The notes beneath the pieces were generated by a model. The model ran no database searches. It worked only from the letters and a program-made list of their open reading frames with translations, and was not told the DNA's origin. Shown piece after piece: positions 10,067 to 60,170 of a stretch of DNA of 64,000 bases. The stretch lies in assembly GCA_045612065.1 (NCBI GenBank), contig JAZKYH010000022.1, positions 7,615-71,614 of the forward strand, written 5' to 3'. A program made the translations under genes and the position numbers. This DNA comes from Bacteroidaceae bacterium (GTDB lineage Bacteria; Bacteroidota; Bacteroidia; Bacteroidales; Bacteroidaceae). The number at the start of each line of letters is the position of its first letter. The first letter of the stretch is position 1.

Positions 10067-10107
10067 CAAAAAAGAAGAGGAGCACCGCGGTGCTCCTCTT
10101 CTTTTTA
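10067..10107. terminator. bidirectional intrinsic terminator between convergent rng and trpB2
   Basis: Perfect palindrome AAGAAGAGGAGCACCGCGGTGCTCCTCTTCTT, flanked by an A-run on the left and a T-run on the right. Confidence 0.85.
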
Positions 10108-10120
10108 ACGATAACGATAA

Positions 10121-11488
10121 CTAAAAGCCAATCTTCTCCTTCAGTTCACTGATGTTCTCGGCAATCACTTCATCGCTCAGGGTGTTGTTGATGAGGTTTC
10201 CGGCAAGGAACTGGTCATACGAAGCCATATCGATGAGTCCGTGTCCTGAGAGGCAGAAGAGGATAACCTTCTCCTCGCCCGTCTCGATGCATTTCTTCGC
10301 CTCGCGTATGGTAGCCGCGATGGCGTGGCACGACTCGGGAGCAGGAATGATGCCCTCGGCAGCGGCAAACAGCGTGCCCGCCTCGAACGACTCAATCTGC
10401 TCCACGTCAACAGCCTCCATCAAGCCATCCTTCAAGAGTTGCGACACCACCAAGCCCGCACCATGGTAGCGCAAGCCACCAGCATGGATGTTGGCCGGGC
10501 GAAAATTGTGGCCCAGCGTGAACATCGGTATCAGTGGTGTATAGCCCGACTCGTCGCCATAGTCGTAGTGGAACTCACCTCGTGTGAGCTTGGGGCACGA
10601 AGCCGGCTCGGCAGCTACAAAACGTGTCGTCTTGCCCTCCTTGATGTTGTGTCGCATGAATGGGAATGCCAATCCACCGAAGTTGGATCCACCGCCGAAG
10701 CAGGCCACCACCACATCGGGATATTCACCCGCCATCTGCATCTGTTTCTCAGCCTCAAGGCCTATCACCGTCTGATGCAATGTCACGTGCCCCATCACCG
10801 AGCCCAGCGTATATTTGCATCCCGGAGTCATCCTCGCCAGCTCCACCGCTTCAGAGATAGCCGTGCCGAGCGAACCTTGATGATTGGGATACTTGGTGAG
10901 AATATCCTTACCCGCACGAGTTGACATCGAGGGAGACGGAGTCACCTGAGCCCCGAAGGTCTGCATGATGCTACGACGATAAGGTTTCTGCTCATACGAC
11001 ACTTTCACCTGATACACTGCTGCCTCAAGGCCAAACACCTTGGATGCATACGACAATGCCGCGCCCCATTGCCCGGCACCCGTCTCGGTGGTAACATTCG
11101 TCACGCCCTCCTGCCTGCAGTAGTAGGCCTGCGCTAATGCAGAGTTGAGTTTATGAGAACCGATAGGACTTACACTCTCGTTCTTGAAATAGATGTGTGC
11201 CGGAGTACCCAGCGCCTTCTCCAAACCATAGGCACGCACGAGCGGCGTGCTGCGATAGTAGGTATACATCTCGCGTACCTGCTCGGGGATGTCGATCCAC
11301 GCATCGGTCATGTTAAGTTCTTGGCTAGATGCCTCACGCGAGAAGAGTTCGCACAAGTCATCCTCTGTCACCGGCTCTCCCGTCTTGGGATTGAGCATAG
11401 GCATCGGCTTGTTAGGCATATCGGCCTGTATGTTATACCACTGAGTAGGTATTTCACTTTCGGGAAGGAAGAATCTTTTTTGTTTCAT
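10121..11488 (-). CDS. trpB2: TrpB-like PLP-dependent enzyme (tryptophan synthase beta, TrpB2 type), stand-alone
   Basis: 455 aa. N-terminal ...LPESEIPTQWYNIQADMP... extension typical of TrpB2, PLP lysine region ...ESVSPIGSHKLNSA..., and GGGSNFGG. Confidence 0.9.
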   Translation of the reverse strand: MKQKRFFLPESEIPTQWYNIQADMPNKPMPMLNPKTGEPVTEDDLCELFSREASSQELNMTDAWIDIPEQVREMYTYYRSTPLVRAYGLEKALGTPAHIYFKNESVSPIGSHKLNSALAQAYYCRQEGVTNVTTETGAGQWGAALSYASKVFGLEAAVYQVKVSYEQKPYRRSIMQTFGAQVTPSPSMSTRAGKDILTKYPNHQGSLGTAISEAVELARMTPGCKYTLGSVMGHVTLHQTVIGLEAEKQMQMAGEYPDVVVACFGGGSNFGGLAFPFMRHNIKEGKTTRFVAAEPASCPKLTRGEFHYDYGDESGYTPLIPMFTLGHNFRPANIHAGGLRYHGAGLVVSQLLKDGLMEAVDVEQIESFEAGTLFAAAEGIIPAPESCHAIAATIREAKKCIETGEEKVILFCLSGHGLIDMASYDQFLAGNLINNTLSDEVIAENISELKEKIGF

Positions 11489-11530
11489 TGTAGTGGATAC
11501 TTAAAATCTTTTCACACCTGTTGTTCGATA

Positions 11531-11578
11531 TAAAAAAGGAAATCCGATGTTCTGTATACCATGAGCATCGGATTCCTC
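11531..11578 (-). terminator. intrinsic terminator inside the trpB2 leader (attenuator terminator)
   Basis: Minus strand reads GGAATCCGATG-(16 nt loop)-CATCGGATTTCC followed by TTTTTT. It ends about 43 nt upstream of the trpB2 ATG. Confidence 0.75.
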
Positions 11579-11633
11579 TATCATCATTCTGTCTTTTTGC
11601 TTTTTTCTATTTCGTATGACGTTGCAATCGTGC

Positions 11634-11687
11634 TCAATGAGTTTCACCAAGCCACCACCAATACTTACTAAGGTTCACAACCATCAT
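11634..11687 (-). CDS. trp leader peptide MMVVNLSKYWWWLGETH (17 aa)
   Basis: Minus strand reads ATG ATG GTT GTG AAC CTT AGT AAG TAT TGG TGG TGG CTT GGT GAA ACT CAT TGA. Three consecutive Trp codons lie between a consensus promoter and a terminator, directly upstream of a Trp biosynthesis gene. Confidence 0.7.
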   Translation of the reverse strand: MMVVNLSKYWWWLGETH

Positions 11688-11728
11688 CACAGGTAACACT
11701 TTTATCTATTTGAACGCTATTACGCGAG

Positions 11729-11759
11729 CAAAGTTACATCATTTCCGCATATCGCCAAA
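11729..11759 (-). promoter_or_regulatory. promoter of the trpB2 leader: TTTG - 19 nt - TAACTTTG
   Basis: Minus strand has -33 TTTG (11759-11756) and -7 TAACTTTG (11736-11729). The spacing fits the Bacteroidetes sigma-A consensus. Confidence 0.55.
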
Positions 11760-11835
11760 CATTTTGCCACAAAAGTTCGCAATAAAAATACAAATCCATA
11801 TTGATTCATCCACCAAACACCGCCAAAAGAGATAT

Positions 11836-13740
11836 TCATCCTGGGATTTCACTTAGCTCCAGCCAGCGCATGGTTTTCTCGTCGAGCTCTTCGTTGAGAG
11901 ACGAAAGGCGGATAGACTTGACCGTGAGCTCATCGGCAGCGAGAGCACCTGTACAGAGCGCCTCCTCGATGGCGGCTTTCTCAGCCTCAAGCTCGGCAAT
12001 GGCTTGCTCTACGGCGGCAAACTCTTGCCGCTCCTTGAATGTCTTCTTCCGGCTCTTGCCCTCAACAGATGATGAGCTGCGGTCAACGGCCTTCGGCGAA
12101 GTGTTGACATTTTTCTGCTGAGACTGCTGCTTGCTGACTGTTGCCTGCTGGCGGTCAGCCTCCTCCTTCCACTCACGATACTGGGTATAGTTGCCGGGGA
12201 AGTCGCGAATGTCGCCCTGACCATTGAAGACGAGCAGGTGGTCGACAATCTTGTCCATAAAGTAGCGGTCGTGACTCACCACGATGACGCATCCCGCAAA
12301 GTCGCGCAAATACTCCTCGAGCACCTGTAGGGTGAGGATATCGAGGTCGTTGGTGGGCTCGTCGAGAATGAGGAAGTTGGGATTGCGCATAAGCACGGTG
12401 CAGAGGTAGAGGCGACGGCGCTCACCCCCACTGAGCTTATAGACATAGCTGTGTTGCTTCTCGGGCGGGAAAAGGAAATGTTGCAAGAACTGCGAGGCGG
12501 TGAGCTGCTTGCCTCCAGCCATGGGGATGACCTCGGCAATGTCGCGAGCCACGTCGATGACCTTCATCTGCGTATCGAACTGCAGACCCTCTTGCGAGTA
12601 GTAGCCGAAGTGCACCGTCTCGCCAATGTCGAGGCGGCCACTGTCGGGGGCCAGCTGTCCGAGCAGCACCTTGAGGAACGAGCTCTTACCGGTACCATTA
12701 TCGCCCACGATGCCGAGCTTCTCGTAACGCGAGAAGATGTAGGAGAACTTATCCAGGATGCAGCGGTCGCCGAAGCGGAGCGAGAGCTCGTCGGCCTCGA
12801 AGATTTTGCTGCCTATATAGGATGACTTCACATTGAGCTGCACGCGGTCGTTGGCCACGCGCTGCTTGGCCACTTTCTCGAGCTCATAGAAGGCCTCCTC
12901 GCGGTAGCGCGCCTTGTGGCCACGAGCCTGGGGCATGCGACGCATCCACTCGAGCTCGGTGCGGTAGAGGTTATTGGCACGAACAATCTCGGTGTTGCGT
13001 GCCTCGATGCGCTCTTCGCGCTTCTCGAGATAGTAGCTGTAGTTTCCCTTGTAAGAGTATACGGTGTGGTCATCGATTTCGATGATTTCGTTGCACACGT
13101 TGTCGAGGAAGTAGCGGTCGTGAGTGACCATGAGCAGCGTGGCGGTGCTACGTGTGAGGTAGTCCTCGAGCCACTCGATGAGGGGTAGGTCGAGGTGGTT
13201 GGTGGGCTCATCGAGGATGAGCATGTCGGGGTTGCCGATGAGCACGTTGGCCAGGGCCACACGCTTGAGCTGGCCACCCGAGAGGGTCTCGACCTTCTGG
13301 TTATAGTCGGTGATATGGAGCGAGGAGAGTATCTGCTTGGCACGCTGCTCGTAGTTCCAGGCATCGGCATGTTCCATACGGTCGAGCAGGGCATCGAGCC
13401 CGGGCGTGCCGGGGGTCTCGAGGCATTGCTCATACTCGCGAATGAGTTGCAGGGTGTCGTTGGTGTCGTGAAAACAGGCTTCGAGCACGGTGAGCCCCTC
13501 AGGATACAGGGGCTGCTGGCGCAGGTAGCCCACGCGTAGGTCGTTCTTGTAAACGATGCTGCCCTCGTCGTGCCCCTCGATGCCTGCCAGCACATCGAGC
13601 AGGGTGCTCTTGCCTGCTCCATTGCGAGCTATGAGGCCTACACGCTGCCCTTGAGCCACACCAAACGAGATACCCGAGAAGAGCACCAAATCGCCAAACG
13701 ACTTGGTGAGTCCATCGACCTGCAGGTAGGGAATCAGCAT
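11836..13740 (-). CDS. ABC-F family ATPase (two ABC domains, no TM domain; C-terminal coiled coil)
   Basis: 634 aa. Two Walker A motifs (GLIARNGAGKST, GIVGDNGTGKSS), two LSGG signatures, and a charged C-terminal tail. Confidence 0.92.
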   Translation of the reverse strand: MLIPYLQVDGLTKSFGDLVLFSGISFGVAQGQRVGLIARNGAGKSTLLDVLAGIEGHDEGSIVYKNDLRVGYLRQQPLYPEGLTVLEACFHDTNDTLQLIREYEQCLETPGTPGLDALLDRMEHADAWNYEQRAKQILSSLHITDYNQKVETLSGGQLKRVALANVLIGNPDMLILDEPTNHLDLPLIEWLEDYLTRSTATLLMVTHDRYFLDNVCNEIIEIDDHTVYSYKGNYSYYLEKREERIEARNTEIVRANNLYRTELEWMRRMPQARGHKARYREEAFYELEKVAKQRVANDRVQLNVKSSYIGSKIFEADELSLRFGDRCILDKFSYIFSRYEKLGIVGDNGTGKSSFLKVLLGQLAPDSGRLDIGETVHFGYYSQEGLQFDTQMKVIDVARDIAEVIPMAGGKQLTASQFLQHFLFPPEKQHSYVYKLSGGERRRLYLCTVLMRNPNFLILDEPTNDLDILTLQVLEEYLRDFAGCVIVVSHDRYFMDKIVDHLLVFNGQGDIRDFPGNYTQYREWKEEADRQQATVSKQQSQQKNVNTSPKAVDRSSSSVEGKSRKKTFKERQEFAAVEQAIAELEAEKAAIEEALCTGALAADELTVKSIRLSSLNEELDEKTMRWLELSEIPG

Positions 13741-14597
13741 GGAGCCTCCCCCCTGCCCCTCTCAAGGGGTGATTCAGATGCCGCAGCCTCTTCAATGCGC
13801 TCCCTGACCTCATCGATGATATCGCTCATCTCCACCTCGGTGAGCAGCTCCCCATGTTTGCCAAAGAGGAGCATGGGACGCGCCACACAGGTGTTGCCAT
13901 ACATGAGCACGGGAGCTTCGACCTTGCCATTGACGAAGGTGTTCCACTCCAAGCCCTCGATGCTCTCGGTGAGCAGCGCACACAAGGTCACGCCCATCAC
14001 GGCACCGGCATCGGAGCCGAGCTGCTTGGTCAACTCAGGGCGCAGGGCTATCTTCTGCAACAGGCGCACATTGTAGTCGATATCGCGGAAACGCTCCTTG
14101 AAGAGCTTCATGCCGAGGTCCTCGATGGTGGCATAGCACGACTCGATGAGGTCGACCTCGGATACGCGTACGGGGATATACTGATTGTGAAACGTGTCGC
14201 GAGGCTGCAAGATTTCGAGCGAAGCGATAAGGGCATTCACCAAGCCCAAATGCTCGTTCACGGAAGCCGTAAATGAGCACTCCACACAAGTCTGACCACA
14301 ACCGATGGTCCAGCGGTGAGTGGTATACTCCACCAGCTGCTCGGTGAACGACTCGGCACTATATATCGTCTCCCAACGGCCCACCTTGGCGAGCTTGGCA
14401 CCCGAAGCCTTCAGAGCCTGACGCATCATGGAGTCGCCAAACGAAGAAGAGGCATCGCGATAGGCCGAAATACGGAAATTGCCATCCCACTTCTCGGGAT
14501 TATAAAACAAGAAGCAGTCGGTCTCTTCACTGAACTCGAACCACTCTTCGGGGTAGGCAAATGCAAACCATGAGCCGGGAGATATAAACTTTTTCAT
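13734..14597 (-). CDS. hypothetical cytoplasmic protein (DUF3805/DUF3806-like, from memory)
   Basis: 287 aa. Its stop overlaps the ABC-F start by 7 nt. The N-terminal ...FAYPEEWFEF...NPEKWDGNFRISAY... resembles Bacteroides DUF3805 proteins as I recall them. Confidence 0.6.
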   Translation of the reverse strand: MKKFISPGSWFAFAYPEEWFEFSEETDCFLFYNPEKWDGNFRISAYRDASSSFGDSMMRQALKASGAKLAKVGRWETIYSAESFTEQLVEYTTHRWTIGCGQTCVECSFTASVNEHLGLVNALIASLEILQPRDTFHNQYIPVRVSEVDLIESCYATIEDLGMKLFKERFRDIDYNVRLLQKIALRPELTKQLGSDAGAVMGVTLCALLTESIEGLEWNTFVNGKVEAPVLMYGNTCVARPMLLFGKHGELLTEVEMSDIIDEVRERIEEAAASESPLERGRGEAPC

Positions 14598-47489: not shown

Positions 47490-47520
47490 TTTGCAAGTAG
47501 GCGATTTGTTTATATTTTTG
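47490..47520 (+). promoter_or_regulatory. leuA promoter: TTTG - 19 nt - TATTTTTG
   Basis: -33 TTTG at 47490-47493 and -7 box at 47513-47520. No leader ORF is visible before the ATG at 47561. Confidence 0.45.
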
Positions 47521-53545: not shown

Positions 53546-53639
53546 AATTCCTTAAAACTAAGTTTGTACGACAAAGATAATGCAAGACAAGAAAAATACA
53601 AAATTATTTTGAATATTTACTATTCCTACGACAGCAATC

Positions 53640-59978: not shown

Positions 59979-60170
59979 AATGATTAATAATAAAATTAGT
60001 ATTAAGATTATTAGTTAAACTTAAAATTCCACTATTTCGCACAAAGATACAGCCTTTTTTACAAAGGACAAAGTTTTCAACACTAAAATCCAAATCCTCA
60101 CCAAATTGCCATGCCCCTTTATACGATTTCGCCCTATTTGCCGTTTACACTCTTATAAGACTATAAATTT

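Follow-up and report, generated by a model that had tools for sequence, protein, structure and literature searches.

A putative tryptophan leader-peptide attenuator upstream of a stand-alone trpB2 gene in Bacteroidaceae

Transcription attenuators that sense tryptophan through a leader peptide are known in Proteobacteria, and candidates from the Bacteroidetes/Chlorobi have reportedly been mentioned by Vitreschak and co-workers in 2004. Bacteroidetes use promoters of the -33/-7 type and largely lack translation initiation led by Shine-Dalgarno sequences. The closest described system in this phylum is the Bacteroid-trp leader motif (RF01692), a tryptophan leader-peptide attenuator predicted upstream of trpB and trpE (Weinberg et al. 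2010, Genome Biol 11:R31, PMC2864571), the seed alignment of which includes B. thetaiotaomicron, B. fragilis, P. vulgatus and P. distasonis (PMC2864571, Additional file 1). Here we analyze a leader of this kind in a 64,000-nucleotide (nt) stretch of DNA from a Bacteroidaceae bacterium (contig JAZKYH010000022.1; the whole stretch is referred to as the window), where it lies on the minus strand directly upstream of trpB2, a gene for a stand-alone TrpB2-type enzyme. We consider it very probable that the leader is a ribosome-mediated (leader-peptide) transcription attenuator which ties the expression of trpB2 to the level of charged tRNA-Trp. The mechanism as such is classical and had been predicted earlier in the phylum; the novelty implied in the initial annotation of this locus was thus overstated, as a trp leader-peptide attenuator of Bacteroidetes had been described before trpB and trpE in 2010. 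The new points are the sequence class itself, the failure of Rfam to recognize it, and its dedication to a stand-alone trpB2. In the literature we found neither an experimental test of leader-peptide attenuation in any member of the Bacteroidetes nor any indication that trpB2 had been described as controlled in this way within the phylum.

How does the leader compare with its described counterparts? With Bacteroid-trp it shares the phylum, a short open reading frame (ORF) with at least two UGG codons, a downstream gene of tryptophan synthesis, and a terminator composed of a hairpin and a U-run; having three UGG codons, a trp gene downstream and its closest loci in metagenome-assembled genomes (MAGs) of Bacteroidaceae, the window leader agrees with the published description of RF01692. 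The peptides are also alike, that of B. thetaiotaomicron starting with MRTMLVNTYWWWR and that of the window with MMVVNLSKYWWWL, which have ...VN..YWWW in common, and published Bacteroid-trp members likewise possess a hairpin right after the Trp codons, with a 3' arm (GUCGUAAG or UCGUGA) complementary to the terminator. The predicted partner of this arm differs, however, as it is the 5' arm of the terminator in the window, but the terminator apex or 3' arm in RF01692 members. The E. coli trpL attenuator (RF00513) follows the four-region logic that we propose for the window leader: region 1 holds tandem Trp codons, a ribosome at the stop codon blocks region 2, regions 2 and 3 form the antiterminator, regions 3 and 4 the terminator with its U-run, and control is kinetic, the terminator being the more stable structure. 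It shows no sequence relationship to the window leader, has two Trp codons instead of three, and regulates trpEDCBA, whereas the window leader would regulate a single TrpB2 gene. Actinobacterial trp attenuators, finally, combine alternative hairpins and a GC-rich, U-run terminator with a leader peptide encoded with two or three UGG codons in a row (Seliverstov et al. 2005, PMC1262725), and in Corynebacterium diphtheriae an attenuator was predicted upstream of a trpB2A operon (PMC1262725). The latter belongs to another phylum and differs in sequence; trpA follows trpB2 there and the name may simply denote a second trpB copy, whereas the window encodes a TIGR01415-type TrpB2 without a nearby trpA.

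The leader and its relatives

The promoter, the WWW-encoding ORF and the terminator that the initial annotation had placed on the minus strand are each present in the sequence (Table 1). The consensus of Bacteroides sigma-A promoters combines a -33 TTTG with a -7 TAnnTTTG, and in the form TTTG-N19-TAnnTTTG it occurs four times in the window, compared with 0.24 expected occurrences. The ORF reads ATG ATG GTT GTG AAC CTT AGT AAG TAT TGG TGG TGG CTT GGT GAA ACT CAT TGA, is preceded by an in-frame GTG one codon upstream, and ends 145 nt upstream of trpB2. Its UGA stop codon (11636-11634) falls inside the segment we call region 2, and GAGCACGATT overlaps this stop codon, as had been noted before. 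Hairpin 1:2, whose first nucleotide is the final base of the third Trp codon, has a predicted energy of -8.7 kcal/mol and is present in both the minimum free energy (MFE) and the centroid structure. The same holds for the terminator hairpin GAGGAATCCGATG...CATCGGATTTCCTT at 11578-11536 (-18.9 kcal/mol), which is followed by T6 at 11537-11532; a simple terminator scanner missed it for the sole reason that its nominal loop exceeds 8 nt. From the T-run to the ATG of trpB2 (11488) there are 43 nt (11531-11489), the distance given approximately in the initial annotation.

Table 1. Features of the trpB2 leader and its locus in the window
Feature	Coordinates	Strand	Basis
Bacteroides-type promoter: -33 TTTG, 19-nt spacer, -7 TAACTTTG	11729..11759	minus	pattern match and conservation
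Leader ORF MMVVNLSKYWWWLGETH with TGA stop, 17 codons	11634..11687	minus	read from sequence
Three consecutive Trp codons UGG UGG UGG (TGGTGGTGG), proposed sensing site	11652..11660	minus	sequence and conservation
Hairpin 1:2, GCUUGGUGA / UCAUUGAGC, proposed anti-antiterminator, possible pause hairpin	11632..11652	minus	MFE and centroid folds
Region 2, proposed 5' strand of the antiterminator, UGAGCACGAUU	11626..11636	minus	conservation and masked folding
Region 3, AAUCCGAUGCUCA, terminator 5' arm and start of loop, proposed partner of region 2	11562..11574	minus	conservation and pairing
Intrinsic terminator, hairpin GAGGAAUCCGAUG...CAUCGGAUUUCCUU and U6	11532..11578	minus	folding and conservation
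Predicted long-range helix P0 (tentative), leader start region (11691-11675) with segment 3' of region 2 (11627-11613), enclosing hairpin 1:2	11613..11691	minus	MFE folds
trpB2, stand-alone TrpB2-type pyridoxal phosphate enzyme, 455 amino acids	10121..11488	minus	PF00291, NF009057, TIGR01415
Bidirectional-looking hairpin, perfect 17 bp, AAAAAGAAGAGGAGCACCGCGGTGCTCCTCTTCTTTTT, flanked by A-run and T-run	10069..10106		position between trpB2 and convergent RNase E/G-family gene

The other exact matches of the promoter pattern lie at 47490-47520 (plus strand), 53572-53602 (minus strand) and 60042-60072 (minus strand) and are probably real Bacteroides-type promoters. The motif TGGTGGTGG is likewise found four times in the window, against 0.67 expected; its other sites (3558, 10705, 31404) were considered as marks of a second leader and rejected, lying inside long ORFs in other reading frames.

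Leaders that can be aligned with that of the window occur at six further loci. Two of them (L001 and L050) were found among the best 80 trpB2 orthologue loci, taken from contigs with one genome per species. The other four (L125, L133, L167 and L179) came from a metagenome scan with the pattern TGGTGGTGGCTNGGN{6,12}TGAGCA, which is blind to the downstream gene context; of the 101 stretches returned, nearly all were chance or coding matches (e.g. WWWLG in TPR-like proteins), and the four true leaders each lie directly before a trpB2 start (MKQKRFFLPE...QWYNIQADMP). In this set of seven, which we call group A, the association with trpB2 is exclusive: all six further leaders are located directly upstream of this gene, and a group-A profile search matched only the seven leaders themselves. 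The -33 TTTG is present in each of the seven sequences, and their alignment is invariant in the -7 box TAACTTTG, in TGGTGGTGGCTyGGT (Trp codons and region 1), in TTGAGCACG (region 2), in ATCCGrTGCTC (region 3) and in ACATCGGATT (terminator 3' arm). The core stem of the terminator, AAUCCGAUG / CAUCGGAUU, is kept throughout, with a change from A:U to G:U in L167. Variation is confined to other parts, namely the N-terminal half of the peptide, the spacers and the terminator loop. As judged from the alignment, this pattern of invariance is the footprint expected of a four-region attenuator. In six of the seven leaders the reading frame is closed by the UGA that lies within region 2.

The seventh leader, that of L125 (L125:2138-2366), carries one extra nucleotide behind the Trp codons (GGTGGAAAA versus GGTGAAAA), by which the UGA of region 2 is out of frame; the stop codon follows 27 nt downstream and the peptide is nine codons longer. 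This natural variant could be used to probe the importance of the position of the stop codon.

All mini-ORFs of the relatives (L167, L001, L050, L133, L125 and L179) share WWWLG, and this invariant C-terminal motif raises the question of whether the leader RNA or its peptide acts in trans, besides or instead of attenuation in cis. The attenuated rnTrpL RNA and the peTrpL peptide of Sinorhizobium, as described in PMC7298713, provide a precedent, and in our case termination would be expected to release an RNA of about 190 nt whenever tryptophan is sufficient. Still, we hold a function in trans to be quite improbable, as the conservation of WWWLG is explained by the constraint on the RNA (UGGUGGUGGCUyGGU being region 1) and the N-terminal half of the peptide varies freely. 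Moreover, no trans target is evident, and the group-A leader profile finds no second copy of this leader class in the window.

Among the 80 orthologue loci, 12, including L001 and L050, have a W-rich mini-ORF within 320 nt upstream of trpB2, and a terminator (hairpin and U-run) follows the mini-ORF in all 12 cases, whereas a terminator-like site is present upstream of trpB2 at 9 of the 68 other loci (Fisher p = 4.9e-9); the combination is thus conserved before trpB2 orthologues. Mini-ORFs with WWW occur in 9 of the 80 upstream regions, but in only 2 of 2946 control windows from the same loci (p = 2e-13), and in none of the 80 on the opposite strand. This enrichment of about 170-fold makes it scarcely credible that the arrangement is a coincidence, with a hairpin that belongs to the ABC-F gene upstream or is a stray terminator and a WWW mini-ORF that arose by chance. 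Such a coincidence could draw on the apparent lack of a separate intrinsic terminator, none having been detected from the ABC-F stop (11836) up to the promoter, and on the whole-region fold, which reaches a z of -1.70 only. However, mini-ORF and hairpin precede trpB2 also where the upstream neighbor is divergent or different, the Trp codons and the pairing segments are invariant, and a conserved promoter intervenes between the ABC-F gene and the leader. As L001 has the leader despite a divergent upstream neighbor, the leader hairpin is more than a terminator serving the gene before it; a terminator solely of the ABC-F gene is excluded, since the element stays when the neighbor changes.

Seven of the loci, which we call group B (L012, L049, L053, L054, L060, L072 and L074), share this architecture but form a sequence class of their own. 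It is found in at least seven further species of Bacteroidales, and the group-B TrpB2 proteins are 79-81% identical to that of the window. Their peptides follow M..(F/Y)WWW(Q/R/H), and a hairpin right after the Trp codons is succeeded by a GC-rich terminator with a U-run. The 3' arm of the former hairpin (UCGUGAG) has its complement in the apex or 3' arm of the terminator (CUCACGA, CUCGCGA or CUUGCGA), and this complementarity to region 2 is retained between subgroups the terminator stems of which are wholly different. Looser leader candidates are found at L038 and L039 (WW plus further W residues) and at L071.

Two side observations concern the other trpB2 loci. In L049 (2778-2910), L054 (2811-2949) and L060 (2807-2940) a long helix around hairpin 1:2 takes in the Trp codons themselves (UUGGUGGUGGCA paired with UGCCGCGUACCAA), an arrangement that recalls the consensus hairpin of RF01692. 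In cultured Bacteroides (L030, L034, L042 and others) trpB2 has no leader and is preceded by an intergenic region of 140-190 nt and a divergent gene of about 610 amino acids.

Alternative pairing and the proposed switch

From these elements we infer the following sequence of events. Transcription would start a few bases past the -7 box (11729), and the 17-codon leader would be translated while RNA polymerase advances. If tryptophan is scarce, the ribosome would stall on UGG UGG UGG (11660-11652), and since region 1 starts at the last base of the third UGG, its footprint would cover region 1. The free region 2 (UGAGCACGAUU) could then pair with region 3 (AAUCCGAUGCUCA), which would block the terminator and allow trpB2 to be transcribed. 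If tryptophan is sufficient, the ribosome would proceed to the UGA within region 2 and occlude this region, so that the terminator would form and the transcript would end at the U6 tract near 11532. In a leader that is not translated, hairpin 1:2 would sequester region 2, making termination the default. The switch would in this way turn on indole salvage when the charging of tRNA-Trp drops.

To represent the successive states we folded transcripts that end just before the 3' arm of the terminator, with all nucleotides masked up to a point 12 nt beyond the first base of the codon in the A site. Without a ribosome, hairpin 1:2 forms and region 3 stays unpaired. A ribosome on the Trp codons lets region 2 engage region 3 (for the window, at -14.3 to -14.7 kcal/mol), and one at the stop codon yields no antiterminator. 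This three-state pattern is followed by the window, by L001 and by L012, L053, L054, L072 and L074, as well as by the one published Bacteroid-trp member that was folded (from the supplement of Weinberg et al.). In all 19 leaders examined a hairpin follows right after the Trp codons and the pairing of region 2 with the terminator is better than the mean of shuffled sequences, with averages of -13.9 kcal/mol for same-class and -10.0 kcal/mol for cross-class pairings. Shuffles that equal the native duplex amount to 2-8% for L001, L167 and L050. Within group A, 89% of the cells of the 1:2 pairing are paired across the seven sequences, with one pair changed from C:G to U:G, while the figure is 87% for 1:2 and 3:4 combined and 93% for 2:3, the latter with zero double changes.

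Several observations weigh against this reading. Folds of the full-length transcript at equilibrium keep the terminator even under the ribosome mask. In L050 the 2:3 pairing is predicted without a ribosome too, and in L049, and partly in L060, which have shorter peptides, it persists with the ribosome at the stop codon. In the window itself the duplex of region 2 with the terminator has an energy of -13.5 kcal/mol, compared with -11.5 +/- 3.1 kcal/mol for shuffles, 24.5% of which are as good, and the 2:3 duplex contains two bulges; the fold of the whole leader (z = -1.70) is marginally above shuffles in stability. Essentially no compensatory covariation is seen in the seven-sequence alignment of group A. 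Lastly, 68 of the 80 trpB2 loci are without such a leader, so that control by a leader is lineage-specific; attenuation of trpB2 may be patchy across the Bacteroidales, which may explain its oversight in model strains.

What do these points imply for the mechanism? A thermodynamic switch was rejected, as the terminator is always kept in equilibrium folds and switching is seen only in folds of shortened transcripts; given that the terminator is the more stable structure throughout, the outcome would have to be decided kinetically, while the RNA is still being transcribed. As the helices of group A are invariant, covariation counts are uninformative, and the structure is deduced from conservation and from the analogy across classes. 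A cross-class MAFFT alignment misaligned the 1:2 hairpin and gave no consensus structure, and an alignment of class B comprises only 14 pairs, two of them with double changes. The antiterminator is the least secure element, its support in the window coming from conservation and not from energy or covariation. The initial annotation had read the locus as a ribosome-mediated attenuator, a reading that agrees with the conservation, with the invariance of promoter, codons and arms, and with the masked folds. Its more detailed proposal, an antiterminator occluded at the stop codon and free at WWW, holds in the masked folds, but the pairing in the window is weak when taken alone, being equaled by almost a quarter of the shuffles. 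Similarly, the mutually exclusive terminator and antiterminator that it had envisaged were obtained with masked, shortened transcripts, but not in full-length equilibrium folds, where the terminator persists.

It is against this background that a leader-peptide attenuator with different wiring has to be weighed, in which P0 or another segment would serve as the antiterminator in place of the 1:2/2:3/3:4 scheme, or in which Rho or the coupling of transcription and translation would be decisive. P0 is predicted in the MFE structures of all seven group-A leaders although their sequences differ there, and it resembles the 'loosely conserved hairpin' of RF01692; in group B the Trp codons lie in a long helix with GCCGCGUACCAA, as they do in the RF01692 consensus; and the 2:3 pairing of the window is, as described, no better than that of shuffles and lacks covariation. 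Nevertheless, we judge such a rewired attenuator to be unlikely. Regions 2 and 3 are invariant in the seven leaders while the adjoining sequence drifts, the stop codon resides inside region 2 in six of them, and the complementarity between region 2 and the terminator recurs with other sequences in group B and in published Bacteroid-trp members. The z-scores of P0 are weak (-0.1 to -2.5), and we regard this predicted helix as tentative. Sensing devices of other types find no counterpart in the leader: a T-box was excluded, as there is no Rfam match, and no run of TRAP-type (G/U)AG repeats was seen on reading the leader.

Relationship to described attenuators

Given the likeness in architecture, is the window leader a member of Bacteroid-trp? 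Searches with Rfam release 15 gave no match to RF01692 in the interval 11000-12200 at E <= 10, nor in the whole window at the gathering score, on the assumption that the RF01692 model was present in the scanned library, for which no known member was run as a positive control. Neither RF01692 nor RF00513 was found at threshold in 29 related loci with the same release. We therefore also searched with a hidden Markov model built from 24 rows of the RF01692 seed (nhmmer --max). This profile did not report the window at E <= 10, whereas it placed the seven group-B leaders among its top eight matches (E 0.019-1.8); from group A, L125 and L179 appeared at E about 3 with the Trp-codon stretch only. 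A profile of group B reached group A only at E 0.16-6. By sequence comparison, group B is a distant relative of Bacteroid-trp. Group A, to which the window leader belongs, agrees with it in architecture and has a peptide of similar type, but makes up a sequence class of its own.

In a P. vulgatus-like member of RF01692 the product of the downstream gene starts with MKTYQVNKEGYYGEFGGAYIPE, which on reading looks like the N-terminus of a canonical TrpB1, probably at the head of the trp operon. The codons of the TrpB2 WYN motif (UGGUAYAAY) are absent from all flanks of the RF01692 seed.

RF00513 has no match in the window. A sub-threshold match to this model was noted on the leader of L053 (L053:2848-2959; 25.9 bits versus a gathering score of 41, E 0.52), which probably reflects the layout of WWW and terminator rather than homology.

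Thus, Rfam misses at least two classes of tryptophan leaders before Bacteroidales trpB2 genes, and the alignment of the seven group-A sequences could seed a model. Going further, we can only tentatively suggest that the window leader represents a separate class of attenuator, possibly of independent origin, that is unseen by RNA models and dedicated to the stand-alone TrpB2 of uncultured gut Bacteroidaceae. If this were true, ribosome-mediated attenuation would have arisen or diversified repeatedly in a phylum without Shine-Dalgarno-led initiation, and TrpB2, the role of which has been debated since 2002, would be placed in the response to tryptophan starvation, as an inducible indole-salvage enzyme in an indole-rich habitat. 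The textbook mechanism of attenuation is left unchanged by our findings.

The trpB2 gene and its surroundings

The product of 10121-11488 is a TrpB2-type enzyme. Among protein family models it scores 683.6 bits against NF009057 (cut-off 366) and 583.8 bits against TIGR01415 (cut-off 518.85), but with 132.7 bits remains far under the cut-off of the canonical TrpB model TIGR00263 (392.45). The nearest TrpB2 loci, with 93-95% amino-acid identity, belong to uncultured Bacteroidaceae MAGs from the ruminant gut. An ABC-F ATPase gene (11836-13740) lies upstream of trpB2 on the same strand, and a strong terminator and a convergent RNase E/G-family gene lie downstream, which is why trpB2 stands alone; it is monocistronic, outside any trp operon, and has no trpA partner nearby. 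Together with the family scores, these surroundings bear out the attachment of the leader to a single TrpB2-type gene, as first annotated. The hairpin at 10069-10106 looks like the end of the trpB2 transcript and resembles a bidirectional intrinsic terminator.

What would be the use of an attenuator before this gene? Enzymes of the TrpB2 type need no TrpA to form tryptophan from indole, for which their Km is very low (Hettwer and Sterner 2002, as cited in PMC11535334), and the TrpB2 homolog BT_RS23500 of B. thetaiotaomicron rescued an E. coli trpA mutant via indole cross-feeding (PMC11535334), a result that fits an indole salvage induced by tryptophan starvation. Most likely, the TrpB2 of the window also makes tryptophan from indole and serine. 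Control of TrpB2 alone by the charging of tRNA-Trp would imply that the enzyme supplies tryptophan in times of shortage, and a switch of this kind would fit inducible indole salvage in the indole-rich gut. With one promoter, one leader and one gene, the locus would also provide a compact test system for the coupling of transcription and translation in Bacteroidetes.

Between the stop of the ABC-F gene and the trpB2 promoter (11760-11836) the simple terminator scanner detected no terminator-like site. Transcription of the ABC-F gene may therefore run on into the leader, and the attenuator hairpin may at the same time serve to terminate it. The start of the ABC-F gene is in turn overlapped by 7 nt (13734-13740) by a DUF3805/DUF3806 gene on the minus strand (13734-14597), which suggests that these two genes are co-transcribed.

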